From assembly GCF_006345805.1 (NCBI RefSeq), contig NC_042998.1:62062001-62126000 (forward strand): a DNA stretch of 64,000 nucleotides. The letters are read 5' to 3'. The notes under the pieces are model-generated. The model worked only from the letters and a program-made list of their open reading frames with translations. It was not told the DNA's origin and made no database searches. The stretch's first letter is position 1; each line of letters begins with the position of its first letter. A program made the translations under genes and the position numbers. Origin of the DNA: Octopus sinensis (lineage: Eukaryota). Below, in pieces: positions 2,161 to 56,984 of the stretch.

Positions 2161-2950
2161 ATAACTCAGTCTACATATATACCCACATGGGTGTGGGTGC
2201 ATACCCACAATATAACATATACATATACATATGAGTGCATATACTCACACTCTTATACATATAAAAATATACATTTACATAATGATATAAATAAATAATA
2301 TAAATTAGTAAACATATATATGTGTTCCACATTCAATGTCTCAGTTTTTCGACTTAATATTGTGATAATAAACATACACAAATTAGTACCTAGATGCAAA
2401 TATACATAGTCAATAGTACATTATATTACTTCATAATAATTTCTAAAGTGTCATTAAAGTTAGCATCATTATCGTTGTCAATATCATTAATGTTATCATT
2501 ATTATCATTCATAATATTATTAATAACACTTACATTAGGATCCAGAGCGGTATATATGTATGTCCGGGTTCCAGTTAACAATTTTCCTTATGACATAAAT
2601 ACACTATTGGATTTGAATTTAAAATTATCATTATCTTCCTCACGGTTGGTCAATTGAGAACCGCCCGACCTCCACCACACCGCACAAGCAAAACATACAC
2701 ATCCACATCTAACCCCAAACCCACACATCCACACAGAAACTCACACACACATGTACACACACATGAATACACCCCGACACATCTCTACACATTCAATAAG
2801 TTACAGAGTGCATGTCTGTCATCGCATGGTTTATAGACATATCAGTACAGGCAGCAGTGTCTAACACTAACAATACATATTCATAAAATATAGGGTAGAA
2901 ATTTCACTACCAGTGGCCTAGCATGTATAAAAAGTCAATAGACAACATAT

Positions 2951-3456
2951 TTTCCATATAAAATTAGTGTACATTTAAACACCAAAGAGGTGACCTTTAA
3001 CAGGTAGCCTTACATGCCAGAAGGAGCAGTCAAAATTACCAAAACTACATTTAATAGCAATTTCGAAAGGAATGAAAAACAAAAACTTTTACCTTGTTTG
3101 TTTACACCCAATTTCGGAAGATTAATTCGGCAATTTTTTCGTTTTCTGCTGACTGAAACCATGCTTATGTGGTGAATTTGAAAATTTATAATATATAATG
3201 ATGAAACATGTGTTATTCTGTCTCTAAATTACATGTTAAAGTTTTGGTGTGCCACTGAAGAGAACTCTACCGAGAAAATTATTTTATTAGAGTTTGAAAC
3301 CTGTAAAAAAACAAGGCAAAAGTTTTTATTTTTCATTCCCTTCGAAACTGCTCTTAAATGTGGTTTTGGTCATTTTGACTGCTCTGTCTAGCATGTAAGG
3401 CTGCCTATTAAAGGTCGCTTCTTTTGTGTTTAAATGTACACTAATTTTATATGGAA
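2951..3456. repeat. Imperfect fold-back (arms ~2951-3107 and ~3302-3456) with a decayed HHR core in the spacer
   Basis: ttccatataaaattagtgtacatttaaacac... pairs with ...gtgtttaaatgtacactaattttatatggaa. Spacer has CTGAAGA gaactcta..tagagttt GAAA at 3255-3299. Confidence 0.75.
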
Positions 3457-3463
3457 TATATAT

Positions 3464-4845: not shown

Positions 4846-5199
4846 CACTGCCAAGAGGCTATGATGTCAGGGTTTGTTCGGATGTCAGTGGCCACCAACA
4901 CATCAAAGGAGATTTCCAGACAGATGAAAAAAAAAGGAAGGTTGGTCAAATAAAGAAATGACTCCAGAAAGTTCTTCCAAGGTCATCTGATCAACAAAAA
5001 TGTGATTTGACTTTTATTGCACAAGTGAACTAAAGAGTTTTTTGAAAAAAATTGTTGAAAGGCACCAATTATGAAAATTGTCCTCGGTGGGGAGTGGTCA
5101 CACCCCTTGCTCCCTTACTAACTATGTTCACAATGGTGAGAGAGTGGAGGTAAAAGAAAATCAGTGTGACACATATAGGAAGTCATTATTTAGATTGGA

Positions 5200-5392
5200 A
5201 TTTAGCATGCTGGGCAAAACGCTTAGCAGCATTTCGTCCATCTTTACATTCTGAGTTCAAATTCTGCTGAGGTAGACTTTGCCTTTCATCCTTTCAGGGT
5301 CGATAAATTAAGTACCAATGATACACTGGGTTGATGTAATCAACTTGTCCCCTCCCCAAATTTCAGGCTTTGTGCTTAGAGTAGAAAGAATT
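5200..5392 (+). mobile_element. SINE family B with Deu/Nin-like central domain
   Basis: gagttcaaattc B-box-like motif followed by gactttgcctttcatcctttcagggtcgataaattaagtacca. Copies at 8300-9085, 19765-19955 and 20786-21005. Confidence 0.7.
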
Positions 5393-5451
5393 ATGTAGAT
5401 TGGAATGGTTTGAAGCAGACACCAGGGAACCATTGTTTTGTTTTTATTTTT

Positions 5452-5660
5452 TATGTTTTACTTGTTTCAGTCATTAGACTGCAACCATGCTGGAGCACTG
5501 CCTTGAAGGGTTTTAGTCAAACAAATCGACCCCAGGAGTTATTTGTTTTTAAAGCCCGGTACTTATTCTATGAGTCTCTTTTGCCAAACTGGTAAGTTAC
5601 AGGGATGTAAACACACCAACACCAGTTGTCAAGTGATGATGGATGGACAAACAGACAAAA
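5452..5660 (-). mobile_element. SINE family A 3' half
   Basis: Matches the 3' half of family A. Confidence 0.75.
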
Positions 5661-5756
5661 AGATATACAAAGATATACATACATACATACATATATTTAT
5701 ATACCTACATGCATGCATATATATATATATATATATATACACATGTATATACATAT

Positions 5757-6170
5757 ACAATTGCAGCATGGAAGGTGTTTGTAAGCCATTTAAGAAACAC
5801 ACAAAAGCCGTTGGAATCACTTCAACATTTAAGTTTAATTTGTCAAAATATTTTCGGCGCTAAAATCCATGACTTGTTCACTGACAAAAATCTGTGTTGC
5901 ATCACGTGCTGCTAAGCATTTTGCCCAGCATGCTAAATTCCAATCTAAAAAATGACTTCCAATATGTGATAGCACGGATTTTTGTCAGTGAACAGGTCGT
6001 GGATTTTAGTGACGAAAATATTTTGACAAATTAAACTTAAATGTTGAAGTGAATCGAACGGCTTTTGTGTGTTTCTTAAATGGCTTACAAACACCTTCCA
6101 CGCTGCAATTGTTTTCGTTCCAGCACACAATCTCAGATCAAATCACTTGCTATGCGAGTACATCTCCGTA
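5757..6170. mobile_element. Fold-back (head-to-head) PLE-like non-coding element, with an HHR-like motif in each arm
   Basis: Arms 5757-5900 and 5971-6110 are reverse complements, flanked by (TA)n. Second copy at 17950-18308. Confidence 0.8.
5981..6030 (+). ncRNA. Minimal hammerhead-like motif with G3-C8 core (GTGAACA)
   Basis: tttgtca GTGAACA g gtcgt ggatttta gtgac GAAA atat TT tgacaaa. Mirror copy at 5839-5888 (-). Confidence 0.65.
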
Positions 6171-7129
6171 ATATATACATATATATATATATATATGTAT
6201 AAACACACACACACATGTATATATATTATACTATCCAAGCCATGCAGCATGGGCAATGGATGTTAAATTATGATGATGATGATAATGATGATGACGATCA
6301 TGATTATCATCATCATCATCATCATCATTGTCATTGTCATCATTTAATGTCTGTTTTCCATGCTGGCATGGGTTTCCAATCTGACTTGGCAAGGTTTCTA
6401 CAGCTGGATACCCTTCTCAACACCATTGTAAGTAATAATTAAAATATTTCTTTTCTGCTCCTTTTTCAAGTTTCTATTATTTTCTCTGCACTGATGAGTA
6501 TTTTGCTATTTTCAAATTCTAAAATAAATTTATACCTATGTACAAAACAATCGTATGCATGAATAAACTTCTTATAACTTTTTAACATCTTATCTCCTCC
6601 ATTTTTGACAAATATGATTGGATTTGTAGGACTTCTTGGTATGAATTAATCATACACTTAATATCAGAAGTAGATATATTTATGTTTTGTATTCAAGCCT
6701 ACATATTATTTAAATATTATCTAAATAATTAAATAAGAACATTTCTTCTGGCCAAATTCCATTCCTATGTCAACTGAAAATGTTGTTATTAATTCCTGTT
6801 GTTTTTGACATTGTTAACATTTTTAGCATAAATCTTGAGGTCATCCACAAAGAAATTATGGGTTACAATAATAATAATAAGTTGCAGACCCTAATATGTA
6901 GCTGCTTTTTTTTTTTTTGTGGAAATGATAATGAGTTTAATGCCAGATATGTACAGAAATACAGGGAGACCCTCTCTTTGGAATATTTGCTTCAAAATAT
7001 TTATGGTATTAGAGATGATCATTCCACTCTCTGTTCTCAGTGTGAGGATTGTGGCTCAGGTCTTTGTGAGCCCTTCAAGGGTGGAAATTAATGGTAGCAG
7101 GAGCTTTTGCCAAATGGAGACACTTCAGC

Positions 7130-7805: not shown

Positions 7806-8299
7806 AAATGTTTGCTTGCATTTGCATTTCTCCAAAGAATGCAAGCTACAACCATTGATGATGTCACTTCTATCAAGAAGCTGTTTGCTGGTTTTTCCCC
7901 TTCAAAGGCATGTCAAATAAAAGATCCATTACTCGAAAAATATGTAAAGGTTGTTAGTGACAAGAAAGGCATCTCACTATAAAAACAGTAATATATTCCC
8001 CCTAACCCATGCTAACATGGAAAAACAGACATAAAAACAAACAAACAAAGTTGACCTTGGTGCCAAGAATAAACACCTGGTCATCAGAGAACCTTATTCA
8101 GACCAGTCACAAGATTAGAAGAAGGAGCTTCTAACTAACTGGTTCTCAAACAGAGTCCATATGAACCCCTGAGGGTCCATATAGGATTTGGGTCTCCACA
8201 GTAGGATTTTAGAGGTCTTTGAGAAAGTTTTGCTTTAGATGCACTTGCTGCAAGAAACAAGTAGGTTTCTTTCTCTAACACTTAACATAGTTCTTCATA

Positions 8300-9085
8300 A
8301 TCCTTTCTATGATAGGCACAAAGCCTGAAATTTGGGGGAGGGGGCAAGTCAATCTCATTGACCCCAGTGCACTACTGGTACTTATTTCGTCAACTCCGAA
8401 AGGATGAAAGGCAAAGTTGACCTTGGTGGAATTTGAACTCAGAATTTGGACCTCACAGAGGCAATGGCAAAAGGCTGAGACCTCAGGAGATATGCTGTGA
8501 CTGAGAAGACCTGACAAATAAGATGAGTTCACAGCTGTAACCTACATCAGTGCCGCATAACCACCCCACTCAAAAGTACCTTGGATCGTAGGGCGACATG
8601 TTGTGCTTGAAGAGACATTGAGTCAAATACATCAACATGAATATCAAATCAAACCACAATCAAATGGAAATTGTAGTTGTGATCCCTGTGCAGGTGGCAC
8701 ATAGAAAGCACCACCCGAACGTGGCCGATGGCAGCGCCGCCTTGACTGGCTTCCATGCTGGTGGCACATAAAAAGCACCATCTGATTGTGGTCGATGCCA
8801 GCTCCCTCTGGCCTCTGTGCCAGTGGCATGTAAAAAAGCACCCACTACACTCTTGGAATGGTTGGCATTAGGAAGGGCATCCAGCTATAGAATCACTGCC
8901 AGATCAGACTGGAGCCTGGTGCAGCCTCCTAGCTTCTGAGACCCCAGTTGAACCGTCCAACCCATGCCAGCATGGAAAGCGGACGTTACACAATGATGAT
9001 GATGGTGATTATGTAACAATGGATGAAATGCCACTAAGTATTTTGCCTGGCATGCTAAAGATTCTGCCAGCTCATTGCCTTCAAC
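8300..9085 (-). mobile_element. SINE family B split by an RTE insertion
   Basis: 3' part at 8300-8445 and 5' part at ~9015-9085. Confidence 0.65.
8448..9010 (+). mobile_element. RTE-LINE 3' fragment
   Basis: gacctcacagaggcaatg...(gtggcac.taaaaagcacc)x3...acccatgccagcatggaaagcggacgtta+(tga)n. Confidence 0.85.
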
Positions 9086-15250: not shown

Positions 15251-15631
15251 ATTCATTAAAATGGTTAATTTATTCATTCTAGAATGTAATGATAGTAATG
15301 GTAAATGATATTACTGAAGTATTCATGTTGCATTAAGAATGAATATTTCTTTATGAACAATGTTTTTGTTTTACTTCAGGGTAGGGTACATAAGCCTCTA
15401 CTACAAACAGTGAGAATGTTTGGGCCAATAAAGTTGGTGCACAATTAATCTTGTACCATTGCATAATTTTGGTTTGAGACAAAATATGGAATACTTAATC
15501 GGAGTCCTTTTTCTCAATTGAACACAATGAGGAACTGTACCTGGTGGTTGTAGTGAGTTAAAGAATTCGATGGGGTAGTTGACACTATCCTGATCATCAA
15601 CAACACTGTCAATTGAGTTATAAGTGAATAC

Positions 15632-17915: not shown

Positions 17916-17949
<34 letters not shown>

Positions 17950-17953
<4 letters not shown>

Positions 17954-18308
17954 GATGTACTCACATAGCAAGTGATTTGATCTGAGATCGTGTGCTGAAA
18001 CGAAAACAATTGCAGCGTGGAAGGTGTTTGTAAGCCATTTAAGAAACACACAAAAGCCGTTCGATTCACTTCAACATTTAAGTTTAATTTGTCTAAATAT
18101 TTTCGTCGCTAAAATCTGTGACCTGTTCACTGACGAAAATCCGTGCTGCAATTTGCCAAAGAGATGCAGCACGGATTTTTGTCAGTGAACAGGTCGCAGA
18201 TTTTAGCAACGAAAATATTTTGACAAATTAAACTTAAATGTTGAAGTGAATCGAACGGCTTTTGTGTGTTTCTTAAATGGCTTACAAACACCTTCCATGC
18301 TGCAATTG
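17950..18308. mobile_element. Fold-back PLE-like element (second copy) with G3-C8 HHR-like motifs at 18088-18137 (-) and 18178-18227 (+)
   Basis: Arms ~18007-18150 and 18165-18308, embedded in (TA)n. Confidence 0.82.
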
Positions 18309-18490
18309 TATATATATATATATATATATATATAAATTAAATTAGAGATAAAACCACTATTAGGAAACTCAAACAGTGATAGACATAAACCAAAACATAA
18401 AAAACAAAAAATAAATATAATTAATATAATATATAATATATATATAAAATATAAAATATAAATATTTTATATTTCTCCTTCTCCTCCTCC

Positions 18491-19015: not shown

Positions 19016-20785
19016 GCACTGCTGGTGATGGTTTGTTTAAATTCCATATCTTAGCAATTTGCCAAAGAGACTCATAAAATAAGCACCAATTTTTTTTTTA
19101 AATATATATAAGTACAGGGGTTGATTTGTTTGACTAAAACCCTTCAAACTGGTGCCCCAGCATGGCCACTGTCCAATGACTGAAACAAATAAAAGATAAA
19201 AGAGATGTTTTATGAAAGTATAAAACCAATTAGTCTGTTGGATCACTGTTGATCATAGATGAGCTCAATCAGAGCTAACCTAGGGTTAAACAGCAACAGC
19301 AAAAAAACAATAGTAAATGATATGTTTGTGATCACAGGTTATCTGTGACCTAAATCACTTGGCTATGCTATCATGTGTTGTGAGTATACCTGGATAAATT
19401 TACAAGTGAGTCATTGACACGATGGTGGCTTCCTCAATTACATACATTACAATGCAGTTTTCCTCTCAGTTTGCCTTTGCAAAAACAGTGAAACATTGAG
19501 CAATGTAAAAGAACTAAGATTAGAAGATTTTATTTGTTTATTTCTTTTATCGTCTCTCATGAAACATTCTCCATCTTTAAGCTTCCAGTTTTCTTCTTTT
19601 TTAACCCCGGGTATCAACTGTCTGTCTATCGAGTATTACATTGGTCAATCTGCTCATTGTGGTATTTAATCTGACCCTCTGCATCTTGAGTTCAAATCTG
19701 ATGAGGTCAAAATATGCCCTTTCATCGTTTTGAAGACAATCAAAATATACCACTCAGTATCTCAGGGTGGAAAGCTAGTAGAATTGTTAGGGCATTAGAC
19801 CAAATGCTTAGCAAAACTTCTGGTTCATTACATTCTGAGTTCAAACCCTGCTGATGCCAACTTTGCCATTCATTCAATAAAATAAATTTCCAGCAAAGTA
19901 TCTGGAGCAGTGTAATTGGCTTATCACCTCCCCTCAAAATTGTAGGCCTGGAACTCTGCAACAGACTGACATCCCACTCAGAGACAAAGTTGCAACTTCA
20001 CTTGTGTAAATGCCATAGAAACTGAATAACTGGCTTTATAAGTTTTAGGGCTCATCATCATCACTTAACTTTTGTTTTCCATGCTGGCATGGGCTGGACA
20101 GTTTGATGGGAGCTGGCAAGGCTAGGAGCCATTCTAGACTCCATTGTCTGCTCTGATATGGTTTCTACAATTGAATTCCCTTCTTACTTTACTAGGTGCT
20201 TTTTACGTGACACCAACACCAGGGCTTTTTATGTTGCACCAGCAATGGTGATTGCATGTGGCACCATAACCAATGGGGTCACCATTTACCTTGCAAGACA
20301 AAAGAAACAAAATCCCCCTCAATTGGAAGCAGGGAGCAGTATTAAGGGTAGAGAGTGGCTTTGTACCAGAGAAAAATTCAGGATGTTGGATTAACTATAA
20401 GAACATAAGAGAGGATGCATTTCAGTATCTGTACTGGATCTTTGCATTCTGAGTTCAAATTTCACCATGGCTTACTTGGGTAGCAAACATAGTTTGATGT
20501 CATTACCCAGTCCTTGGGTGCCTTTGAAAACATCTTCTCTGTTCCAGACTTCCAAGCCAGTCTGTGGATTAGCCCTTTAGCATTTAATCCAACCATATCC
20601 AGCCAAAATATTCTGCCTGTTTTATGCTTCAACTGGTCAGATCTGGCTTCCCATACCAACCCTACATTATCGTTCTAAAAATTAACAATTACTTCATCAA
20701 AATTTCAAAGCTACAAAATAATGCATGATTAATTGAAAATAATGTGAATAAATAAGCAATACTTTTGACAAAATAATGTGAATAC

Positions 20786-21005
20786 CTATTTCTTTATTAC
20801 CCACAAGGGGCCAAACATAGAGAGGACAAACAAGGACAGACATAGGTATTAAGTCGATTACATCGACTCCAGTACGTAACTGGTACTTAATTTATTGACC
20901 CCGAGAGGATGAAAGGCAAAGTGGACCTCAGCGGAATTTGAACTCACAACGTAACGACAGACAAAATACCGCTAAGCATTTCACCCAGCATGCTAACGAT
21001 TCTAC
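20786..21005 (-). mobile_element. SINE family B (Deu/Nin-like domain)
   Basis: tggtacttaatttattgaccccgagaggatgaaaggcaaagt...ggaatttgaactc. Confidence 0.8.
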
Positions 21006-21659: not shown

Positions 21660-23551
21660 AGAACGAGTAGCAAAGAGGAGCCAGGGAATGAAGGATCAGC
21701 TCTTAATTGATAATCTAATTATCAGGGACTGCTAGAGAAGACATACAAACCTGAGAATGGCATGGGTTGACTATCATAAAGCATACAATATGATACTACA
21801 CTACTGGTTAATAAGAACAATGGAAATGTATGGAGTAGAAGAGAGACAGCAAGGAATCAGGTGTTAGGTGAGGTGAAAATTAAGAGAGGTATCTTCCCAG
21901 GGGAACAGTTTGTCCCCACTTATCTTCATGCTGGGAATGATCCCCTTGAGTGAAATACTACAGAATACAAAGTTGGGGTATGATTTGGAAAGAGGTAAGG
22001 GAAAACTGAACCACTGGCTATTCATGGATGACTTGCCAGTTATTCACAAAAAATGAGGCAGAACTAGACAGCCTAGTCTAGTCTGTGCAGATTTTCTCCA
22101 ATGATATTAAGATGGAGTTTGGGCTCCCAAAATGTGCTATGATGGTGATGAGACGAGAAAAGCTCGTCAAGACAGAAGGCATAGAGTTTCCAAGTGGTGA
22201 AATGATGAAGGCAATTCAACCTCAATCAAGCTATAAATATCTGGGAATACTTGAGGTAGATGGAATTAAACACAATGTCATGAAAGAAAATACAAAAAGA
22301 GAGTACCTGTGGTAAGTGAGAAAAATATTGGCTGAATACCAGAAACAATTTCAGCAATAAATTCCCGTGCAGTTTCAGTATGGCACTGGAATCATGAAGT
22401 GGATAGAGGAAACACTAAAGGAGATGGACAGGAAGTCAAGAAAGCTTCTAATGATGCATGGTGCCCATCATCCACATGTGGACACTGATCACCTATACAT
22501 GAAGAGAGCAAATGGAGGAAGAGGATTGATAAGTGTGGAAGGCTGCATGCATATCGAACTTGAGAGCTTAATGAAATACTTAGCCCAAAGTAAGGAAAAC
22601 TTGTTAGTATCAGTTAGGAACAAAGGAGTATTGAAAGCAGAGAAAAATGGGAAAATGAAGGGAAAAGTGCAAAAAGAACATGAAGAAGAATTATGCAAGA
22701 AGGGACTATATGATCAGTTCCGTGTAGCCACAACAGAACTTACTGGAAAAATAGGAAGGATTGGCTGAAGAAAGGAAACCAAGAGCACTATACTGGCAGC
22801 ACAAGACCAAGCTTTGGCCACGAACTGGAGGGTCAACCTTAGGAATGAGCAAGTGTCTCAGCTGTACCACATCTGCAATAGAGTGGATGAAACCATTGCC
22901 CATATCACAAATGTATGCATTAGACTTGCACAAAACCACTACAAGTTGTGTTGACAGGATTAGGTAGTGAAAGTGCTACACTGGAAACTGTGTGAAAGGA
23001 GGGGGCTAGAGAGAGGCAAGACATGGTACGAGCACAAACCACAGAGTGGTGGAATTGGAGACTAGCAAAATCCTCTGGGATTTCCTAATCCAAACAAATC
23101 AGATGCTAGAGCATAACAGACTAAACCTAGTGGTGGTGGAAAAGGTGCACCGCATATGCAATATAGTTGATGTTGCATGCCCCTTTGACCCATGAATACT
23201 CAAGAAGAAGGACTAAAAGCTGGATAGATAGATACAACCCTCTTAAATACGAAATAGCCCGGTTGTGGAAAATGAAGAAGGTGAAGATAGTGCCAATTAT
23301 TGTTGAGTCCTTGGGGTCAGTATCAGAAGGCATCATGAGGAATATAAAGGAAATTGGAATAGAGTACCCAGTAGAACTGTTACAAAAGGTTTGCCTCCTT
23401 GGCATGGCCAGAATAATCAGGTAAATATTAGACAGCTGAAAAGAACAAGTAGCATGGTAACATAGGCTGCAGGTATCAATCTCGCTATGCATATAAGACT
23501 CCAGGAGATCCAACAAAACCTGTGATAAAAGAAAGGGAAATAACAATAATG

Positions 23552-25369: not shown

Positions 25370-25412
<43 letters not shown>

Positions 25413-25513
25413 TGTGAGGATAAAATTCTTTTCGAAAAAAATATATTTTCTCGAAAAAATTTTATCAATGGCCAGCATATTAAAATATACCTTTAACGGT
25501 TAAATTTATAAAC

Positions 25514-25981
25514 AATTCATAAATGAGGGCAAAGGAAAAAAATTCTAATGCCAAATATGCTGAAAAATTGGACATATTGTCCATTAACCATATAATTTTT
25601 TCATAATACGCACGCTACTCGAAAAAAGGTTGACAGAAATTTCTAAAAAATTCCATTATTACCATATCGGACCGATTTCAGAGTTAGCTGCTAAGAGCCC
25701 TCTCTTCGTCAGTGATACATGTGGCAAAAGAAATAAATGAGATACTTACTCATACCCATGGAATGAGTAAGTATCTTATTATTTCTTTTGCCACATGTAT
25801 CACTGACGAAGAGAGGGCTCATAGCAGCTAACTCTGAAATAGGTCCGATATGGTAATAATGGAATTTTTTAGAAATTTCTGTCAACCTTTTTTCGAGTAG
25901 CGTGCGTATTGTGAAAAAATTATATGGTTAATGGACAATATGTCCAATTTTTCAGCATATTTGGCATTAGCATTTATGAAT

Positions 25982-27095: not shown

Positions 27096-27544
27096 AATTT
27101 TTAAATTTTTGCAATATTTTTGTGGTATTTTAGTATGTTCTTTTCATGTTTTATCATCTTAAATTTTTATTACACCAATGTATTGTAACTTTTAGATCTA
27201 AAATTCTCTGTGCTTTATGTATCATATCGATATTTATCTATTTATATGTATTTTTATATTTATATTTTTGAAATTATTATATCAGTTTTATAAATGTAGA
27301 AGAATATATATACATATTTGATTTTGTGTGTGGTTATTAATTATGTTCCTCTAGTTTCTGCTTGCATTGCCTCCATTCAGATTATTAAATAGAATACAGC
27401 TCACTTGGAGCAATACAACTCTAGTCTGTATTTTATTTGCGAGTATTGTTAATATTGGGAATCTCAAAATAAAGCCGTATATTTTATATATATATATATA
27501 TGAATGGTTTTTTATTATGGCACCATGATTTACAATCCTGTAAA

Positions 27545-27812
27545 TAATAATAATGGTATTTTTATATAAGCTTAAAGCTTATGGTGATCACCGTACAATG
27601 ACTAAGGAAAATAGTCTAATAAAGGGACATATAAACCCTCAACAGAAAAAAGAAGGTAACACACTTAGTCGCATTAACAAAGGGATATGGATTTGTCTGC
27701 CACATGGATAGGAATGCCTTCTTTTTCTGCTGAGGGTTTATATGCCCCTTTATTAGACTATTTTCCTTATGGTGATTGCCATAAGCTTTAAGCTTATATA
27801 AAAATACCATTA

Positions 27813-27817
<5 letters not shown>
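27545..27817. repeat. Fold-back with ~105-bp arms between (TA)n tracts
   Basis: aataatggtatttttatataagcttaaagcttatgg... / ...ccataagctttaagcttatataaaaataccattatt. Confidence 0.8.
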
Positions 27818-27849
<32 letters not shown>

Positions 27850-28028: not shown

Positions 28029-28990
28029 ATATATATATATAAATATATATATACATATGATATTCTCCATGTGAACTACAATGAAAAAAATATGAGAAAG
28101 ATATGGTATATAATTTTTTTTGTGCAGGGGTTCTTTCAGAATTCGGATTACAAAAGGTTAGAAAGGTTGAGAAACACTGCGCTAATTATTTGATTTTCCC
28201 AAATACATTTTCATCAGATATTATCACACGATTGAGTAAGCATGTTTTATTTTTAAAACCATTAACGATAATTAATAGGCCAATTTGGTGTTTACGGAGT
28301 GGTTTGTATAAAATCCTATGAAATTGTTGCATCTTATACCTTGTTTGATCATAGGATATGGTGCTGATACCAGTTTTTGACATGCACTAAAACCTGTTTT
28401 CATTAGTCTCTAGTGAATGACGATGACGATGATGATAATGATTGTCAACTTATTGCGCACTTCAGCTAGTTCTAAAAATAGATTTTGCTACATGACAGGG
28501 CATATGACAATATTATTGTCAATCTTCTTAGAAGTCATTTTGACCCATCTTGCTCTAATGCTTTTGATTCATTGCCATGATCTTAATATCTGCTTTTCTG
28601 TACTTGTATGGGTTGAACAGAGGTTACTGAAGTAAATTTTTCTGCTGCCAGATGCTATTCCTGTCACCAAACTTTGCCTGTTTTTGGTGTTGGATGAACT
28701 ATTGAGCAAAATAAGCACAAGCTCAGGGCATCAAAGGAAGTGTGTGTGTGTTTTGAACCACAGAAACGGTAAATGTTTTACAGCACAAAAGAAATCATTT
28801 TAAACTTGTTAAAATAATATTCAGAATGTTTTATCTCTACCAAGTATAGAAGCAGGTGTGTTACATAAGATTAATTTTGAGGATCTGATCAAATACTTTG
28901 AAATTATTAAAAACAGGAGAAAACTGGCGACACATAAAAGCACCCATTACACTTATTATTATTGTTATTATTATTCAGGTCACTGCCCAT

Positions 28991-29243
28991 GGGCATATGG
29001 CGTAGTGGTTAAGAGCACGGGCTACTAACCCCAAGATTCCGAGTTCGATCCCAGGCAGTGACCTGAATGATAATAATAATAATGATAATAATAATAACAT
29101 CGAAAAATACCTTAGGAATGAGAACCCAGGTTCGAAATTTCCCCAAGACACCTGATGAAGGCTGGAAGGTGTATCAGCCGAAACGTGTTAACAACAAGCA
29201 ATATGAGGACAAATATCCGTTAAATGTAAATAATGTAAATAAT
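28991..29243 (+). mobile_element. tRNA-headed short element carrying an HHR-like motif
   Basis: A box tggcgtagtgg, B box gagttcgatcc, (TAA)n, then gacac CTGATGA a ggctgg..tcagcc GAAA c gtgtt. Confidence 0.65.
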
Positions 29244-31434: not shown

Positions 31435-32428
31435 TCATTGAAAGGAGGAGAGTGTTATAAGTATCTAGGAGTATTATAATCTGACAAAGTACTAACTATA
31501 AAAATAAAAATGAAAACTGAGAAGGAGTACATCAGAAGGGTGAAGAAGCTAATGAAGTTAAAGCTAAATGGTCCGAATCTTGTGAAGGCTGTTGATACTT
31601 GGGCAGTTTCATTACTTAGATACTCAGCAGCTTTTATAGATTGGACAAAAACTGAATTTTCAGAGCTAGACAGAAGAACTAGGAATGAATTCAATATGAA
31701 TGGAAAGCTCCACCCAAGGGCAGGAGTAGTAAGATTATACATACCCAGAAAAGAAGGTGGAAGAGGGTTACTATCAGTAGAACACTCCATGGAGTTAGCT
31801 AGAATAGATATAGATTCCTGTGTAGGTAATAGGGAAGAAAATTTACTAAAAGCTGCTAGAGTCACAGCAAGACATGGGGAAACCAAAAACCCAAACGATG
31901 TTAAAAACCAGAAAAAAGAACAGAAGTTATCTGACTGGCAGGAGAAGGTGTTGCATGGTAGATTCCCAAAGATAGTTGCAGCAAATAATAGTAGTGAGAC
32001 ATGATTATGATTGCATAAAGGAAAGCTGAAAAGGGAGAAAGAAAGTTTGTTAGTAGCTGCACAAGTTCAAGCACTAAGGACTAATTGGATAAAAGCCAAG
32101 ATAGATAAAAACCAAGTAGATTCCCAATGTAGGTTATGGAAATCAAAAGAGGAAAGCATTACGCATATAGCAAGTGAATGTAGCATGCTGGCATAGAAAA
32201 TACACAAGAAAAGATATGATAACCTAGGGAGAGTAATCCATTGGTAGTTATGTAGAAAGTTAGGATTTGACCATACTGATAAATGGTATGAACATGAACC
32301 TACTAAAGTACTAGAAAGTAAGTACAAGGTGTTGTGGTACTTTAACATTCAGACTGACAGTTAACAGAAGCTAGAAGGTCTGATTTGGTTGTAGTAGATA
32401 AAGAGAATAGAAAGTGCCAAATAATTTA
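31435..32428 (+). pseudogene. R4/Dong-like LINE ORF fragment (post-RT region, CCHC, start of RLE)
   Basis: YKYLGVL, EYIRRVKKLMKLKLNGPNLVKAVDTWAV, RLYIPRKEGGRGLLSVE, LLVAAQVQALRTNWIK, CRL..EESITHIASECSMLA, VLWYFNIQTD. Confidence 0.85.
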
Positions 32429-35655: not shown

Positions 35656-36113
35656 ATATGAAATCGACAGATATCAGCCAGTAAACATTCTAGTATGTTT
35701 ATTTATTCCAATGTATTGGTTTGGTTCGCACACATGTATTAGTGATATAGATAATCAAGTGGAAAGAGCTAGTAATTGCAAAAATATGGGTGTGGAAGCA
35801 TATAAGCAGATAGGAATGAGTGATCAATTGAGCAGATGAGCAAATGAGCAGATTGTCTATAAAACCGAATGGGTGTGTAGGTGCTAGTTCCTACACACCC
35901 ATTCGGTTTTATAGACAATCTGCTCATTTGCTCATCTGCTCAATTGATCACTCATTCCTATATACTTCCACACCTTTGTTTTTGCAATTATCAATTACTA
36001 ACTCCTTCTACTTAATTATCTGTACCACTAATACATGTGTGTATATCAATCCAATACATTGGAATAAATAGCTATACAGGAATGTTTACCAGCTGATGTC
36101 TGTCGATTTCATA
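35656..36113. repeat. Fold-back with perfect inner ~70-bp arms and diverged outer arms
   Basis: taggaatgagtgatcaattgagcagatg...gggtgtgtagg [tgctagtt] cctacacaccc...ctcattccta. Confidence 0.85.
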
Positions 36114-36143
36114 TTGTCTCCACTTCCTCTTTTATAGATATAT

Positions 36144-36207: not shown

Positions 36208-36215
36208 GTATATAT

Positions 36216-36325
36216 AATCAAAATAAGCAACAAGGATATCCAGAGGTAATGCAGAACGATCATTTCATGCAACTAAATGATCGTATTGCATCACCTCTGG
36301 ATATCCTTGTTGCTTATTTTGAATT
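36216..36325. repeat. Short fold-back, ~50-bp arms
   Basis: tcaaaataagcaacaaggatatccagagg / cctctggatatccttgttgcttattttga. Confidence 0.85.
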
Positions 36326-36439
36326 ATATGGATAATACCATACTAAATTCTGGTGCTTTTAACTTAAGTATCATATTCAACTGAATCTAAATTTTACTAA
36401 ATATATGTGTGTGTGTGTGTATGTATATATTCTTTTTTC

Positions 36440-36856: not shown

Positions 36857-36963
36857 TATATATATATATATATATAATTAAAAATGTGTTTTGAGTATTA
36901 TAGGATAGAATCCTACATAAGCCCAACTAAAAGTTAAAAAATGGAGAAGAGAAGATGTTAACA

Positions 36964-37009
<46 letters not shown>

Positions 37010-37457
37010 ATATCTGTGTGTGTATGTGTATGTTTTTGCGTCTGTCTTTGTCCCCCACACCACCACCACCACCACCACCATCGCTTGACAACTGATGCTG
37101 GTGTGGTTACATCCCCATAACTTAGCGGTTCGGCAATAAGTGACCGACAGGATAAGTACTAGGCTTACAAAGTATAAGTCCTGGAGTTGATTTGTTTGAC
37201 TAAAGGTGGTGCTTCAGCATGGCTGCAGTCAAATGACTGAAACACGTATAAGAATAAAAGAATGTGTGTGTGTGTGTGTTTGTGTGAGAAAAATTAGTTC
37301 AAGTAGAACAATTTGAACTTTTTGGAGGGTCCAAAAAGTTAGATTTCTAATAAAGATTCTTCATATCAAAATAGTAACTTGCTATTACAGGTATTTAAAA
37401 TATGAAAATTAGACAATTGAAAATGTGTTATGAGTATTATAAGATAAAATCCTATTT

Positions 37458-37571
37458 AAACCCAACTAACAATTAAAAAATGGAGAAGAGAAGATGTTAA
37501 AAGGTTTTATAAATTTTTAATCCACTTTTAACATCTTCTCTTCTCCATTTTTTAACTGTTTGTTGGGTTTT
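37458..37571. repeat. Short fold-back; left arm also repeated at 36880-36962
   Basis: ttaaaaaatggagaagagaagatgttaaaag / cttttaacatcttctcttctccattttttaa. Confidence 0.8.
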
Positions 37572-38101
37572 AATTATATATATATAGGTGCAGGAGTGGC
37601 TGTGCAGTAAGCAGCTTGTTTACCAACCACATGGTTCTGGGTTCAGTCCCATTGTATAGCACCATGAGCAAGTGTGTTCTACTATAGCCTTGGGCCAACC
37701 AATGCCTTGTGGGTGGATTTGGTAGACAGAAACTGAAAGAAGCCTGTCATGAGTTCATGGCTCACTGGATGGTCTGCTGTGCTTACCTTGGATTGTAGGG
37801 CGACCTGCTGTGCTTGAGGACACCTATTAAGTCAAGTACATCAACATCAAAATAAAAATCAAATGGAAATTGTAGTTGTGATACCCGTGATAAATGAAAA
37901 ATAGAGATATATATAGATAAATTCTGGAATGTTCCTGTAACTTGTTGTTGCTCTTTGGGCCACCTCCTCAGGTTTGCCTGTTGTGACTGTGAAACTTACT
38001 TCAACTATGACTAACTCATATTTATGCGTGTGTGTGTGTATGTGTGTGTGTATGTGTGTGTGTCTGTGTATGTGTGTGCATAAATATATATATATATGTG
38101 C

Positions 38102-38303: not shown

Positions 38304-39559
38304 TCATCATCATCATCATCATCATCGTTTAACGTCCGCTTTCCATGCTAGCATGGGTTGGACGGTTCAACTGGGGTCTGGCAAGCCCGAAGGCTGCACC
38401 AGACCAGTCAGATCTGGCAGTGTTTCTACAGCTGGATGCCCTTCCTAACGCCAACCACTCCGAGAGTGTAGTGGGTGATTTTATGTGCCACCGACACAGG
38501 TGCCAGACGAGGCTGGCAGACGGCCACGCTCGGATGGTGTTTTCTTATGTGTCACCGACACAGGTGCCAGACGGGGCTGGCGGACGGCCACGCTCGGATG
38601 GTGTTTGTTATGTGCCCTCAGCACGGAGGCCAGTCGTTGCGGTACTGGCTACGATCACGTTTGGATGGTTTTCTTATGTGCCACCGGCACTGGTACCACA
38701 AGGATACAAATTCCATTGATGTTCATCTATTTTGATTTGGTTCGATTTGATTTGATTTGATTTGATTCGATTCTCACTTGCCTCAACAGGTCTTCACAAG
38801 TGTCACAAGAAGGAAGGTATGCACAGGTGGACTGACTACGTCCCAGGTAGGGGCCACGGATTATGGCTTCACTAGTCTTGCCGGGTCTTCTCACGCACAG
38901 CATACTTCCATAGGTCTCGGTCTCTAGTCATTTCCATGGTGAGACCTAACGTCCGAAGGTCGTGCTTCACCACTTCGTCGCAGGTTTTCCTGGGTCTACC
39001 TCTTCCACGGGTTCCCTCAACTGCTAGGGATTGGCACTTTCTCACACACCTATCTTCATCCATTCTCGCCACATGACCATACCAGCGCAATCGTCTCTCT
39101 TGCACACAACAACTGATGCTTCTTAGGTACAACATTTCTCTCAAGGTACTAACGCTCTGTCGACTAAGTACACTGACATTACAATCCATCGGAGCATACT
39201 GGCTTCGTTCCTCACAAGCTACGCATGTCCTCAGCAGTCACGGCCCATGTTTCACTGCCATGTAGCATAGCTGTTCGTACACATGCATCATACAGTCTGC
39301 CTTTTACTCTGAGCGAGAGGCCTTTAGTCACCAGCAGAGGTAAGAGCTCCCTAAACTTTGCCCAGGCTATTCTTATTCTAGCAGTTACACTTTCAGCGCA
39401 CCCGCCCCCACTACTGACTTGGTCACCTAGATAGCGGAAGCTATCAACTACTTCTAGTTTTTCCCCTCGGAAAGTGACGGAAGTTGTTTTCTGCAGATTT
39501 TCAGAGGTCAATGCTCCAGAGCATCTGCCACATACAAAAACTATCTTCCCAGTTAGCCT
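38304..39559 (-). mobile_element. Young 5'-truncated RTE-LINE
   Basis: LEVVDSFRYLGDQVSSGGGCAESVTARIRIAWAKFRELLPLL...RRLRWYGHVARMDEDR...GRPRKT, UTR repeats and (TGA)n tail. Confidence 0.92.
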
Positions 39560-39900
39560 ACTTAATAGGTGTCCTCATGTATATATATAATTCCAAGGGA
39601 GAGGTTGTGAATCCAACCAACTAAGGGATAATATCTATCCAATATACTGGTGGTCGAATACCCAATTATTAATACACAAGTGTTTTTTCATTGCATAGCA
39701 ATTACATTACCGAGTGTAATAAATGGGTGATGGTAAAAAGATATTTTACCCTTAATTAATATATCATTAAGAAAATGGAGTTAATCAAGAGTTGGTATTT
39801 ATCAACTTATAGACATTATATTATGTCTACTTATTTTTTTTTTAAAAAAGACAATTATAGCAATATATATACATGTATAACCTATTATGCTTTAAATATA

Positions 39901-48607: not shown

Positions 48608-48809
48608 TAAATAAGCAAGTATGTTGATGCAAACAGGAAACATAGAACTCAGAATATGAGTATATGTGTATTTTTATTAATATTTAGCAGTAGCAACAGA
48701 GTGACTCAAGGGCTGACAGTTTCATGCGTTGATAAGTGCCAACACATGAAATTCATGGCTCGTGAGTCACCCAATTGCTTCTGCAAAATATTAATAAAAA
48801 TATGCATAT

Positions 48810-49948: not shown

Positions 49949-50532
49949 TGTGTGTGTGTGTGTATGAGTGTGTGTGTGTATCTGGGTCAGACAAATTATT
50001 GAGGCAGATTTTCTATGATCAGATACCCTTCCTGTTGCTACCCTCATCTATTTCCATACAAAGCAATATTTACCCATAACCAAGCGTGTTTCCGCAGGAT
50101 GCTGGGAATGAATGACGCTATTATGACAATGACAATTACAACAGTGATGCAATGTCATGACAATGAGGCACAAAATATACAATTAAAACTTGTACCTCTT
50201 TCTGTATATGCTAGACAATAAGCACAAACGGAAGACAGCATGGGAGGAACAAGTTTTAATTGTGTGTCTGTTTGTGCCACTTTGTCTTGACCTTTGCATC
50301 ATTGTTGGAGCTAGGTGTCACTGTCATCACACTAATGACATTCATTTCCAACATTCTGTGAAAACATGAATGGCTATGGGAAGATATTACTTTCTTTAGA
50401 AGCAAGATAAAGGTGGCAACAGGAAAGGTATCTGACCATAGAAAATCTACCGCAATAATTTGTCTGACCCAGATACACACACACACATATATATATACAT
50501 ATACATAGATATATATATTTATATATATATAT

Positions 50533-50818: not shown

Positions 50819-50847
<29 letters not shown>

Positions 50848-51208
50848 CTAGCTGAAGGTGACCCACTCTACGCGCGGGTAAGAGTGTGGTTGTTACTTTC
50901 TGTTGCTTCCTTTCAGCACGTAAAAAGCACCATCCGAACGTCGCGGATTGCAGCGCCGCCTTGACTGGCTTCTGTGCTGGTGGCACGTAAAAAGCACCAA
51001 CCGATCGTGGCCGCTGCCAGCCCCCCTGGCACCTGTGCAGGCGGCACGAAAAAAGCACCCACTACGCTCACAGAGTGGTTGGCGTTAGGAAGGGCATCCA
51101 CCTGTCGAAACACTGCCAGATCAGACTGGAGCCTGGTGCAGCCTCCTGGCTTCCCAGACCCCTGTCAAACTGTCCAACCCGTGCTAGCACGGAAAACGGA
51201 CGTTAAAC

Positions 51209-51239
<31 letters not shown>

Positions 51240-52669
51240 CTCCCTCTTTGTTTCTTTCTCCTTTCTCTCTCACTTTCCCACTCTCTTACTCTTCCTTTCT
51301 CTCGGACTCTCCCTCGCTTTCTCTTACTCTCTATCTTATGTATCTCTCTCCCATTTATAAACAACAAAAGATCTTGAGTAAGTTGAGAAAAAAAATATTT
51401 AGAAAGATCAATCATAAATATCAGGCAGTTACAAAGGAAAGGTCTGCTTCAAGACAGACAGCAAAACACTAACATTTAAAAGGGACAGACGAACTTGCGA
51501 GCTGAATAAAAATAATAAAATATTGGAAACAAAAGTTTGAAGGGATAGAATTTGAGGATAGTAGAGTCACCATGGCTGGCATTTCTTAACGATGGACAGC
51601 AACGTATTGACAGTTCAACGGCTGGCGTAAAAGTTTGAACTTGATGTAAAAGAAAATCCCTAAAAACCAAGTTTTGACTTGATTCTTTCTGACGACAGTA
51701 GACTCACGATGGCAAGCATTCTGAATAAAAATAATAAAATATTGGAAACAAAAGTTTGAAGGGATAGAATTTGAGGATAGTAGAGTCACCATGGCTGGAA
51801 TTTCTTAACGACGGACAGCAACGTATTGACAGTTCAGCGGCTGGTGTAAAAGTTTGAACTTGATGTAAAAGAAAATCCCTAAAAACCAAGTTTTGACTTG
51901 ATTCTTTCTCACGACAGTAGACTCACGATGGCAAGCATTCAAAACTTCTTCATCATGGACGGCAACACATTGACGATTAAAAGGCTGGAGCAAATTTTTT
52001 AGCTTGATGTAACAGAGAATTGCTAAACACCCGCTCCTTTAAATTTTAATCCCCTTCCAGCCCCATTTATACCCCTTTTCACCTTTTGGTTAATATAACC
52101 CGATTTAATTGGGTCTACTGGGGCCACATTTTATAAGATGAGGATACAACCAAGTTTCCCAAGTTCTGGTCATAGACCATAGAACACTCAACCAAGTTTC
52201 CCGATTTCTGGTCATAGACCATAGAACAGTGAAGCAAGTTTCCCGAGTTCTGGTCATAGACCATAGAACACTCAACCAAGTTTCCCGAGTTCTGGTCATT
52301 TACAGAATAAATAGAGACGGCGGAGGTGGCAGACGTCGTTGCAATGTAAACATGATTTGTTATAAGAGAAAGATTGTCCAGATTGTGTGTTGGTGGTGTT
52401 GGTGGTGGCGATGATAATTATCATTAGGAAAAAGAGTGAGTGAGTGAGGAAGACATACATAAGTTGTGGCGATGATAATTGTAGACCCCTTTTCACATTT
52501 TGATGAAGAGAACCCGATTTCATTTGGGTGTACTGGGGCTACATATAGGTGTGTGTGTGTGTGCACGCTGTAGAAATTAAATTAGAGATAAAACCACTAA
52601 TAGGGAAATGAAACAGTAAAAAACCAAAAACAAAAACATAAAAATAAAAATATAATATTAGATATATGA

Positions 52670-52701
<32 letters not shown>

Positions 52702-53119
52702 TGACAGGTAGACAATAGAATGCGATGGCGATGGGGATGGCGAGTAATATTTGTTACTGTCCATGAACGCTGAGAGATACATGAGTAAAATGTATAGGAA
52801 GGTAAGAGATAGAGTGAGTGAAAATGTTCTTGGAAGAGAGTAAATAGCTACAGAGTGATTTGAGGAAGACTTTACATTAAATAACGGTAGTTGCATTGTC
52901 AAATGAAGAGGAGTGACAGAGTACTGGAGGAAATAGGGTGAGGTAGGAAGATGGCCCCTAGCAACCACACCTTTTAAGATAGGGATTTCTAAGGTAGCCC
53001 ACGCGCATCGTCACCTCATTCTACATGTCCCTGTAAATTTTGGATTGAATCGGACGGGATGTAGTGGCATTGAAAGCGAACCAAGCGGTAAAAACGCATT
53101 TCAGTTTTATATAGAGAGA
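50848..53119 (-). mobile_element. Non-autonomous Helitron with internal minisatellites and an RTE insertion (50915-51237)
   Basis: Minus strand A|TCtctctatataaaa ... acccgcgcgtagagtgggt hairpin ... CTAG|T. Internal 218-bp and ~43-bp tandem repeats. Confidence 0.72.
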
Positions 53120-53126
53120 TATATAT

Positions 53127-53760
53127 GTGCATACCTTCCTTCTTGTGACACTTGTGAAGACCTGTTGAGGCAAGTGAAAATCAAAAAATCAAAAAATCAA
53201 ACAAAATCAAAATAGATGAACATCAATGGAATTTGTATCCTTGTGGTACCAGTGCCGGTGGCACACAAGAAAACCATCCGAACGTGGCCGTAGCCAGTAC
53301 CACACCGACTGGCCTCCATGCTGTGGGCACGTAACAATCACCATCCGATCATGGCCGATCGCCAGCCTCATATGGCTCCTGTGTCGGTGGCACATAAAAA
53401 ACACCATCCGAGCGTGGTCGTCTGCTAGCCTTGTCTGGCACCTGTGTCGGTGGCACATAAAAACACCATCCGAGCGTGGCCGTTCGCCAGCCTCAATTGG
53501 CACCTGTGTCGGTGGCACATAAAAACACCATCCGAGCGTGGCCGTTCGCCAGCCTCGTCTGGCACCTGTGTCGGTGGCACATAAAATCACCCACTACACT
53601 CTCGGAGTGGTTGGCGTTAGGAAGGGCATCCAGCTGTAGAAACACTGCCAGATCTGACTGGCCTGGTGCAGCCTTCGGGCTCCCCAAACCCCAGTTGAAC
53701 CGTCCAACCCATGCTAGCATGGAAAGCGGACGTTAAATGATGATGATGATGATGATGATG
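53127..53760 (+). mobile_element. RTE-LINE 3' UTR with six ~62-bp units (duplicate at 56117-56750)
   Basis: gcacctgtgtcggtggcacataaaaacaccatccgagcgtggccgttcgccagcctcgtctg repeats. Confidence 0.9.
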
Positions 53761-53768
53761 ATATATAT

Positions 53769-53838
<70 letters not shown>

Positions 53839-53839
<1 letters not shown>

Positions 53840-54199
53840 TAGCTGAAGGTGACCCACTCTACGCGCGGGTAAGAGTGTGGTTGTTACTTTCTGTTGCTTC
53901 CTTTCAGCACGTAAAAAGCACCATCCGAACGTCGCGGATTGCAGCGCCGCCTTGACTGGCTTCTGTGCTGGTGGCACGTAAAAAGCACCAACCGATCGTG
54001 GCCGCTGCCAGCCCCCCTGGCACCTGTGCAGGCGGCACGAAAAAAGCACCCACTACGCTCACAGAGTGGTTGGCGTTAGGAAGGGCATCCACCTGTCGAA
54101 ACACTGCCAGATCAGACTGGAGCCTGGTGCAGCCTCCTGGCTTCCCAGACCCCTGTCAAACTGTCCAACCCGTGCTAGCACGGAAAACGGACGTTAAAC

Positions 54200-54230
<31 letters not shown>

Positions 54231-56109
54231 CTCCCTCTTTGTTTCTTTCTCCTTTCTCTCTCACTTTCCCACTCTCTTACTCTTCCTTTCTCTCGGACTC
54301 TCCCTCGCTTTCTCTTACTCTCTATCTTTATGTATCTCTCTCCCATTTATAAACAACAAAAGATCTTGAGTAAGTTGAGAAAAAAAATATTTAGAAAGAT
54401 CAATCATAAATATCAGGCAGTTACAAAGGAAAGGTCTGCTTCAAGACAGACAGCAAAACACTAACATTTAAAAGGGACAGACGAACTTGCGAGCTGAATA
54501 AAAATAATAAAATATTGGAAACAAAAGTTTGAAGGGATAGAATTTGAGGATAGTAGAGTCACCATGGCTGGCATTTCTTAACGACGGACAGCAACGTATT
54601 GACAGTTCAACGGCTGGCGTAAAAGTTTGAACTTGATGTAAAAGAAAATCCCTAAAAACCAAGTTTTGACTTGATTCTTTCTGACGACAGTAGACTCACG
54701 ATGGCAAGCATTCTGAATAAAAATAATAAAATATTGGAAACAAAAGTTTGAAGGGATAGAATTTGAGGATAGTAGAGTCACCATGGCTGGAATTTCTTAA
54801 CGACGGACAGCAACGTATTGACAGTTCAACGGCTGGTGTAAAAGTTTGAACTTGATGTAAAAGAAAATCCCTAAAAACCAAGTTTTGACTTGATTCTTTC
54901 TCACGACAGTAGACTCACGATGGCAAGCATTCAAAACTTCTTCATCATGGACGGCAACACATTGACGATTAAAAGGCTGGAGCAAATTTTTTAGCTTGAT
55001 GTAACAGAGAATTGCTAAACACCCGCTCCTTTAAATTTTAATCCCCTTCCAGCCCCATTTATACCCCTTTTCACCTTTTGGTTAATATAACCCGATTTAA
55101 TTTGGGTCTACTGGGGCCACATTTTATAAGATGAGGATACAACCAAGTTTCCCAAGTTCTGGTCATAGACCATAGAACACTCAACCAAGTTTCCCGATTT
55201 CTGGTCATAGACCATAGAACAGTGAAGCAAGTTTCCCGAGTTCTGGTCATAGACCATAGAACACTCAACCAAGTTTCCCGAGTTCTGGTCATTTACAGAA
55301 TAAATAGAGACGGCGGAGGTGGCAGACGTCGTTGCAATGTAAACATGATTTGTTATAAGAGAAAGATTGTCCAGATTGTGTGTTGGTGGTGTTGGTGGTG
55401 GCGATGATAATTATCATTAGAAAAAGAGTGAGTGAGTGAGGAAGACATACATAAGTTGTGGCGATGATAATTGTAGACCCCTTTTCACATTTTGATGAAG
55501 AGAACCCGATTTCATTCGGGTGTACTGGGGCTACATATAGGTGTGTGTGTGTGTGCACGCTGTAGAAATTAAATTAGAGATAAAACCACTAATAGGGAAA
55601 TGAAACAGTAAAAAACCAAAAACAAAAACATAAAAATAAAAATATAATTTTAGATATATGAATATATGTGTGTGTGTGTGTGTGTGTGTGTTGACAGGTA
55701 GACAATAGAATGCGATGGCGATGGGGATGGCGAGTAATATTTGTTACTGTCCATGAACGCTGAGAGATACATGAGTAAAATGTATAGGAAGGTAAGAGAT
55801 AGAGTGAGTGAAAATGTTCTTGGAAGAGAGTAAATAGCTACAGAGTGATTTGAGGAAGACTTAACATTAAATAACGGTAGTTGCATTGTCAAATGAAGAG
55901 GAGTGACAGAGTACTGGAGGAAATAGGGTGAGGTAGGAAGATGGCCCCTAGCAACCACACCTTTTAAGATAGGGATTTCTAAGGTAGCCCACGCGCATCG
56001 TCACCTCATTCTACATGTCCCTGTAAATTTTGGATTGAATCGGACGGGATGTAGTGGCATTGAAAGCGAACCAAGCGGTAAAAACGCATTTCAGTTTTAT
56101 ATAGAGAGA
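53839..56109 (-). mobile_element. Second copy of the non-autonomous Helitron
   Basis: Same termini as 50848-53119. Confidence 0.72.
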
Positions 56110-56751
56110 TATATATGTGCATACCTTCCTTCTTGTGACACTTGTGAAGACCTGTTGAGGCAAGTGAAAATCAAAAAATCAAAAAATCAAACAAAATCAA
56201 AATAGATGAACATCAATGGAATTTGTATCCTTGTGGTACCAGTGCCGGTGGCACAGAGGAAAACCATCCGAACGTGGCCGTAGCCAGTACCACACCGACT
56301 GGCCTCCATGCTGTGGGCACGTAACAATCACCATCCGATCATGGCCGATCGCCAGCCTCATATGGCTCCTGTGTCGGTGGCACATAAAAAACACCATCCG
56401 AGCGTGGTCGTCTGCTAGCCTTGTCTGGCACCTGTGTCGGTGGCACATAAAAACACCATCCGAGCGTGGCCGTTCGCCAGCCTCGTCTGGCACCTGTGTC
56501 GGTGGCACATAAAAACACCATCCGAGCGTGGCCGTTCGCCAGCCTCGTCTGGCACCTGTGTCGGTGGCACATAAAATCACCCACTACACTCTCGGAGTGG
56601 TTGGCGTTAGGAAGGGCATCCAGCTGTAGAAACACTGCCAGATCTGACTGGCCTGGTGCAGCCTTCGGGCTCCCCAAACCCCAGTTGAACCGTCCAACCC
56701 ATGCTAGCATGGAAAGCGGACGTTAAATGATGATGATGATGATGATGATGA

Positions 56752-56805
<54 letters not shown>

Positions 56806-56808
56806 CAT

Positions 56809-56980: not shown

Positions 56981-56984
56981 TATA

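Follow-up and report, generated by a model that had tools for sequence, protein, structure and literature searches.

Two fold-back copies of an octopus Penelope-like element, lying in a 64,000-nucleotide stretch of the Octopus sinensis genome (the window), each carry between their inverted arms a short spacer that is a copy of sequence from the same locus. The family is represented in the window by four arms, which make up these two fold-backs, copy 1 (5757-6172) and copy 2 (17948-18309). Our preferred reading, which we consider somewhat probable, is that both ends of the target primed cDNA and that the ends were then bridged by a copy of local sequence, its synthesis primed through microhomology. 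The coordinates of the features are collected in Table 1.

The spacer of copy 1 is the reverse complement of 5170-5231, ungapped and identical at 59/62 positions (mismatches at 5918, 5950 and 5961), as an earlier note on this DNA had read it, with three mismatches in about 62 bp. The match has an E value of 7.6e-24 in the window (a binomial estimate over 128,000 sites gives about 1.7e-25), and the runner-up ungapped site for the 62-nt spacer in the 64-kb window reaches 37/62. The source is still present, 675 nt away (5231 to 5907), and the match ends abruptly at its left. The earlier note had also placed the source across a junction of unique DNA and a SINE some 700 bp off and had called it locus-specific, and both descriptions stood up to closer analysis, where we use "SINE" for dispersed repeats that end in simple-repeat tails, not as a library name, and "unique" is judged within the 64-kb window. 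The paralogs of this SINE align only from about 5198-5202, so the junction is genuine, and the SINE is flanked by a target-site duplication (5185-5201 vs 5390-5406) that is 16/17 identical. A 24-mer spanning the junction has 0 edits at 5189 and no other site with 5 edits or fewer in the window. Taken by halves, the SINE part of the spacer matches the source at 30/31 positions vs 26/31 for the paralogs in the window, and the non-SINE part matches it at 29/31, the next best site (21/31) being the second copy of the target-site duplication. At mismatch 5950 both copies of the duplication disagree with the spacer, and at 5918 three SINE paralogs agree with it. Because the source crosses both the junction and the target-site duplication, the source and the direction of copying are fixed, and because it is continuous with its own SINE and duplication, the SINE was there first and the spacer was copied from the locus later. 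Copying in reverse, from the loop to the flank, was rejected on this same continuity. The final 3 nt of the spacer (5966-5968) can be assigned equally well to the right arm, and neither the source nor what is known of the arm accounts for base 5906.

Table 1. Features of the two fold-back copies and their surroundings (positions in the window).
Feature	Position (strand)	Remarks
Candidate pairing site	5157..5172 (+)	Beside copy-1 template end; resembles element cDNA end
Copy-1 local template	5170..5231 (+)	Unique DNA, left target-site duplication and first ~30 nt of 5'-truncated SINE
Left target-site duplication of source SINE	5185..5201 (+)	Right copy 5390-5406
5'-truncated SINE-like repeat	5202..5392 (+)	Predates spacer; paralogs 20851-20996, 8292-8445, 19802-19873, 9011-9059
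SINE-like repeat	5449..5756 (+)	(TA)-rich tail is the insertion target; matches 10 other places in the window
Copy-1 short, tail-less arm	5757..5905 (-)	Ends at ORF nt 33 (codon 11)
Copy-1 spacer	5907..5968 (-)	Inverted copy of 5170-5231; last 3 nt common with long arm
Copy-1 long arm, part common with short arm	5966..6112 (+)	2-nt deletion beside junction
Minimal type-I hammerhead-like motif	5981..6030 (+)	7-bp stem I, G3:C8 core variant, extra base before stem II, palindromic stem III
Penelope-like ORF, first 31 codons	6080..6172 (+)	28/31 to P0002
One-arm tail, copy 1	6113..6172 (+)	ORF nt 34 to 92/93, then (TA)n
Copy-2 long arm	17948..18150 (-)	Tail 17948-18005
Copy-2 spacer	18148..18164 (+)	12 nt plus 3 and 2 nt common with arms; direct copy of 19054-19070
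Copy-2 short arm	18163..18309 (+)	Same end base as copy-1 short arm, then (TA)n
Copy-2 local template	19054..19070 (+)	Within diverged SINE copy with private variants

The spacer of copy 2 is unlike that of copy 1 and matches its own template at 17/17 positions, the sole match in the window; relative to the templates, the copy-1 spacer is inverted and the copy-2 spacer direct. Repeats are abundant here, and 6.3% of 3000 random 28-mers had an exact 17-nt match 0.2-2.2 kb away, so the case for copy 2 rests on the private variants of its SINE, as the spacer has 0 edits to the local SINE copy vs 4-7 edits for 10/10 paralogs in the window. A SINE subfamily elsewhere in the genome may be an alternative source of this spacer. 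The comparison that the earlier note had proposed, of family spacers against their own flanks, came out in favor of local origin within the window, since the two spacers differ and each matches its own flank better than 51/51 other 4-kb windows (loop scores of 53 vs a maximum of 20 elsewhere for copy 1, and 17 vs a maximum of 9 for copy 2). The loop test took in 11 of the 22 inverted matches, with 2/11 positive; those left out were a SINE pair flanking a microsatellite (56574), short or simple matches, and pairs 256-571 nt apart, which we regarded as separate dispersed repeats. For the loops of the other fold-backs a local template was found in 0/9 cases, of which 4/9, with loops of 9 nt or less, are not judgeable. 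A scan of bacterial and archaeal genomes returned 0 stray copies of the family.

The arms are identified by sequence comparison as the repeat and ORF start of an Octopus Penelope-like element with a C-terminal GIY-YIG domain. This assignment was made by a chain leading from the window peptide to P0002, then to P0003, and from there to longer relatives. The ORF start in the long arm matches P0002, an O. sinensis gene model, at 28/31 amino acids from its first Met, and a search of 1.84 billion representatives with the ORF-start peptide gave a single match, an Octopus bimaculoides record. P0001 and P0002 overlap P0003, an O. vulgaris protein carrying KF and DK-G motifs, and P0003 leads to 29 longer relatives, with a Y/F-x-DD motif in 29/29 and the DK-G motif in 23/29. 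A Pfam search of 12 relatives gave RVT_1 in 2/12 and GIY-YIG in 1/12, all under the cut-off and with both in one protein; the GIY-YIG pattern occurs in 1/29 relatives, and a GIY-YIG-like motif can be read by eye at the C-terminus of P0005. The Neptune/Nematis clade is recognized by a CX2-5CxxC linker before the endonuclease and by its place in an RT tree; P0005, a single relative, shows a cysteine linker C-x4-C-x2-C, and the element is perhaps of Neptune/Nematis type. Both window copies are truncated and non-autonomous, and tblastn with 6 family proteins found no family RT or endonuclease coding region in the window, only the two ORF starts being matched. The short motifs of the family had 0 occurrences in an exact-word search of the available PMC8557442 supplement (Naiad_Obim, Naiad_Ovul, Naiad_Omin and Hydra-1_Obim), in which line breaks may hide matches, and a comparison of five other fold-backs with the same portion of the supplement gave one match, in unrelated GC-rich sequence. 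We also considered a MITE or fold-back DNA transposon and rejected it, as the ends are asymmetric by 59 nt, the center varies between the copies, and the arms encode the start of a retroelement ORF. The public model of P0002 joins the N-terminus of the element to unrelated methyltransferase exons and is likely a mis-annotated intronic copy.

In 2/2 copies the arms lie head-to-head in (TA)n, one with a 59-nt tail and the other without it, and 4/4 outer ends adjoin (TA)-type repeats. Both short arms stop at the same ORF position and both long arms at about nt 92/93, while the inner ends of all four arms cluster in a span of about 8 nt, on a 12-mer with 10/12 self-complementary positions. The two arms of copy 1 are identical at 132/141 positions, the arms within a copy are 94-96% alike, and the arms are predicted to fold into near-continuous stems (about -157 and -169 kcal/mol). 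In each copy the dinucleotide at columns 28-29 is copy-specific and common to both arms, which is in line with one template per insertion. At column 129, a CpG, the short arms agree on one base and the long arms on another, a pattern that fits one template per insertion only via parallel CpG decay.

A candidate hammerhead-like motif lies in the long arm of copy 1. A hammerhead descriptor, written after the motif was seen, matches 1/4 arms and gave 0.04 matches per simulated window (n=150). Rfam returned 0 matches at the gathering score for the window and so lends the motif no hammerhead support, and over the two copies, at E values up to 10, it returned generic hairpin families only, which we read as chance. 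An extra base before stem II together with a palindromic stem III has also been described in the available text of PMC4209133, and a G3:C8 pair is reported to give partial rescue of hammerhead cleavage (PMC11167929). A short open frame (5969-6031) crosses the motif and stops right after it; it may be the C-terminus of an upstream ORF in a tandem element.

Arm and template overlap by 3, 3, and 2 nt at 3/3 readable junctions, for which the joint chance is about 6e-4. The fourth junction (5905/5907) leaves base 5906 over and has several readings, among them a 2-nt overlap if the element continues as a palindrome and a 6-nt overlap after a 12-nt slip. The candidate pairing site has a 3'-anchored score of 8, ranking 1/523 among local sites for the short-arm end and tied at 2/523 for the long-arm end; with the short-arm query, 30/7380 sites of the window reach at least this score. 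The 2-nt deletion in the long arm is at the copy-1 junction where this extended pairing site sits. For copy 2 no extended pairing site was found, the ranks being 194/479 and 30/575. The templates lie 523 nt (copy 1) and 744 nt (copy 2) from the edge of the insertion, and 675 and 889 nt from the junction; the intervening DNA is partly repeat and could be younger. Spacer and template differ at 3/62 and 0/17 positions vs 9/141 and 5/141 between arms (Fisher p=1.0, low power), and this lack of difference is, with weak power, in line with a single event. The side and orientation of the templates are uninformative as evidence of resection, as every combination fits.

The window contains further fold-backs and a variety of other repeats. 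A second fold-back family at 25405-25975, probably another Penelope-like family, has arms that are 98% alike, a left tail, a position in (TA)n and a near-palindromic center, as well as a hammerhead-like motif with a canonical core in both arms (25712 on the minus strand, 25803 on the plus strand). Seven more (2947-3461, 27541-27822, 35656-36114, 36212-36329, 37454-37574, 48662-48809 and 49949-50505) lie mostly beside (TA)n and have loops of 8-195 nt with no local template, and the one at 37454 has relatives at 36876-36982 and 6565-6606. The fold-backs at 25540 and 35656 join through imperfect central palindromes (22/27 and 20/24), as the self-priming model in the available text of PMC3846280 expects. 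At 28953-29088, a 56-nt loop that by eye resembles the head of a tRNA-derived SINE sits between inverted arms of 40 nt that terminate in (ATT)n, and at 56574-56981 two copies of a SINE-like repeat, 92% alike, stand tail to tail across (TA)n. A 3.0-kb tandem duplication (50819-53819 and 53810-56810, 99.4% identity) is either recent or an assembly artefact. A Pfam search of 150/338 ORFs found LINE RT, zf-RVT, PHD, Tc1-type transposase, and Pif1 fragments, with no GIY-YIG and no host exon among the 150 scanned. These include LINE fragments with RT and a PHD finger that occur twice in opposite orientation (57466-58709 and 39215-39574), decayed RT pieces near 21877-22951 and 31480-32193, a broken Tc1/mariner-type transposase with HTH and DDE pieces (59584-60472), and a Pif1 helicase 2B domain fragment on the minus strand (15404-15631, E 2.8e-06) that is perhaps Helitron-derived.

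These observations can be arranged in a sequence of steps. As extrapolated from the enzyme work in the available text of PMC11167929, the element's endonuclease would cut both strands of (TA)n. Each target end would then prime reverse transcription at one of two fixed sites, ORF nt 33 and nt 92/93, the positions at which the arms end, and two such start sites within the first 100 nt of the ORF would give one tail-less and one tailed arm; fixed outer end-points in both copies are what they would be expected to produce. Both cDNAs appear to stop no more than about 8 nt apart, at the near-palindromic 12-mer upstream of the hammerhead-like motif, where the inner end-points lie. Rather than annealing cleanly to each other, the two 3' ends, which have the same sequence, would next part ways: one of them would find a match of a few bases elsewhere in the locus, at a distance of 0.5-0.75 kb, be extended by the 12-59 nt seen in the spacers, be released, and pair with the other end through the 2-3 nt of overlap seen at the junctions. 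The polymerase would most likely be one of the host's that act in end joining or template switching, in the manner of Pol theta or MMBIR, with the element RT as an alternative that the sequence fits equally. The spacers hint that two hairpin halves were made separately and then joined by repair, and the spacer itself is probably a repair scar without function. Part of this had been proposed in the earlier note, which held that two cDNA arms were bridged by synthesis on neighboring chromosomal DNA; the arms as retroelement cDNA, with a Penelope-like ORF start, and the local copying of the spacer both stand, while timing at insertion, a DNA template, and the enzyme are inferences. Against the preferred mechanism are the sample of two copies, the one unexplained base at the fourth junction, the lack of an extended pairing site in copy 2 and the unusual distance of the templates, as well as the 0/9 other fold-backs with a local template, two of which join through a central palindrome.

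A distinctly less likely account is that a near-perfect palindrome was inserted first, by self-priming or by pairing of terminal near-palindromes, and that its center later broke as a hairpin or cruciform and was patched by host repair from a local template. Palindrome centers are unstable and subject to repair. The self-complementarity of the element's inner end (10/12) and the near-continuous stems predicted for the arms would suit such a history, and the left junction of copy 1 can be read as a perfect center interrupted after 3 nt. However, with 4/4 inner ends within about 8 nt, hardly any arm sequence has been lost, the spacers are not detectably younger than the arms (a weak point), and two fold-backs in the window with centers of 3-9 nt persist unrepaired.

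It is rather unlikely that each copy stems from a single RT run, in which tail-primed cDNA reached the inner end, jumped to local DNA or a nascent host transcript, copied 12-59 nt and returned onto its own cDNA, with the endonuclease setting the short end. Template jumps have been proposed for Penelope (PMC3846280), as has endonuclease resolution for the tail (PMC8557442), in the available texts. One arm type as primer and one template strand will do for either spacer (a chance of one half), the extended pairing site of copy 1 and the 2-nt deletion coincide at the long-arm junction, and the variants common to both arms of a copy fit as well. Yet this account requires two jumps and, in both copies, a cut at the identical base, which follows directly from two RT start sites as in the available text of PMC11167929; nor did a host gene turn up that would orient a transcript, with 0/150 scanned ORFs (of 338) read as a host exon. 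Very improbable is an origin of the spacers from SINE RNA made elsewhere, from part of the element, or by chance or assembly artefact: SINE sequence makes up part or all of each template and random 28-mers match nearby at the rate given above, but the copy-1 spacer includes the junction together with 31 nt of flank outside the SINE, which refutes it for copy 1, the copy-2 spacer has the variants private to the SINE copy closest to it, the two spacers differ, and the arms are 94-96% alike, where a fold-back of the read would be identical.

Much of this structure has been seen before, as far as the available portions of the cited sources go. Inverted repeats of which a single arm is tailed are described for Penelope-like elements (PMC8557442, PMC3846280), and our copies share with the Penelope pLTR (Pen2a_Av in PMC3846280, PAc in PMC11167929, and PMC8557442) the head-to-head repeats, one-arm tail, AT-rich or (TA)n target, and inner-end palindrome, and perhaps the hammerhead-like motif. 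As in Pen2a_Av, the repeat takes in the beginning of the ORF, with 11 aa in our copies (31 with the tail) and 12 and 22 in Pen2a_Av (PMC3846280), and in vitro the anole enzyme cleaves the two strands and extends each of them, its two start sites bounding the tail (PMC11167929). In contrast to the published pLTRs, our copies have no ORF body, a tail of 59 nt rather than 30-40, and a copy of local flank at the inverted junction. For Penelope inverted junctions, self-priming on an antisense template has been proposed (PMC3846280), and the available text describes overlap through a palindrome; in Pen1_Av, host DNA of 0.9-1.5 kb has been captured between direct repeats, and the available text gives no local origin for it. 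Our search of the open literature found no account of locally templated spacers at the inverted junctions of Penelope elements.

The closest parallels to the joining step come from L1 and Pol theta, again in the available parts of the sources. As in L1 twin priming, both target ends would be primed, inverted cDNAs joined by microhomology, and genomic segments of less than 250 bp copied (10.1101/2024.08.27.596794; PMC11702581; PMC2912911), and L1 twin-primed inversion junctions carry end-joining features, and templated genomic inserts are known for L1 (PMC11702581). L1 is a retroelement of another class, however, and its two arms come for the most part from different stretches of the RNA, whereas here one stretch is duplicated. 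Its templated inserts number 22 among about 3,600 insertions (10.1101/2024.08.27.596794; PMC11702581; PMC2912911), with templates typically within 15 bp of the site (10.1101/2024.08.27.596794, main text), vs 2/2 here at 523 and 744 nt. Pol theta inserts (PMC5068794; PMC11292364) resemble our spacers in being short copies of the flank, direct or inverted, with overlaps of 1-3 nt at both ends; they are mostly less than 25 bp, the inverted ones 3-30 bp, and about 85% prime within 10 bp (PMC5068794), whereas here up to 59 nt were copied from hundreds of bases away. We do not class the spacers as a Pol theta product, the template distances being 523 and 744 nt vs a typical 10 bp or so (PMC5068794).

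The finding is a variation on known processes, replicated once (n=2) and tied to a named element class. The origin of Penelope inverted repeats is named as unresolved in the available text of PMC8557442, and the steps after priming are unvalidated in that of PMC11167929. That the arms enclose sequence of the destination locus shows an inverted junction that was open at the chromosome, and self-priming prior to integration would not lead one to expect this. A bolder and rather doubtful proposal is that local-template bridging is a regular step of this Penelope family, carried out by its telomerase-related RT, which would work 0.5-0.75 kb away from the cut on chromosomal DNA or on a nascent host transcript. 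If this were true, each spacer would record a dual-priming route to inverted repeats and how far the enzyme can reach, and the capture of host DNA by Penelope-like elements could have its explanation in this step. The orientation of spacers within introns would separate DNA from RNA templates, and as the spacer signature is easily counted across octopus genomes, the question of how Penelope elements insert becomes testable.
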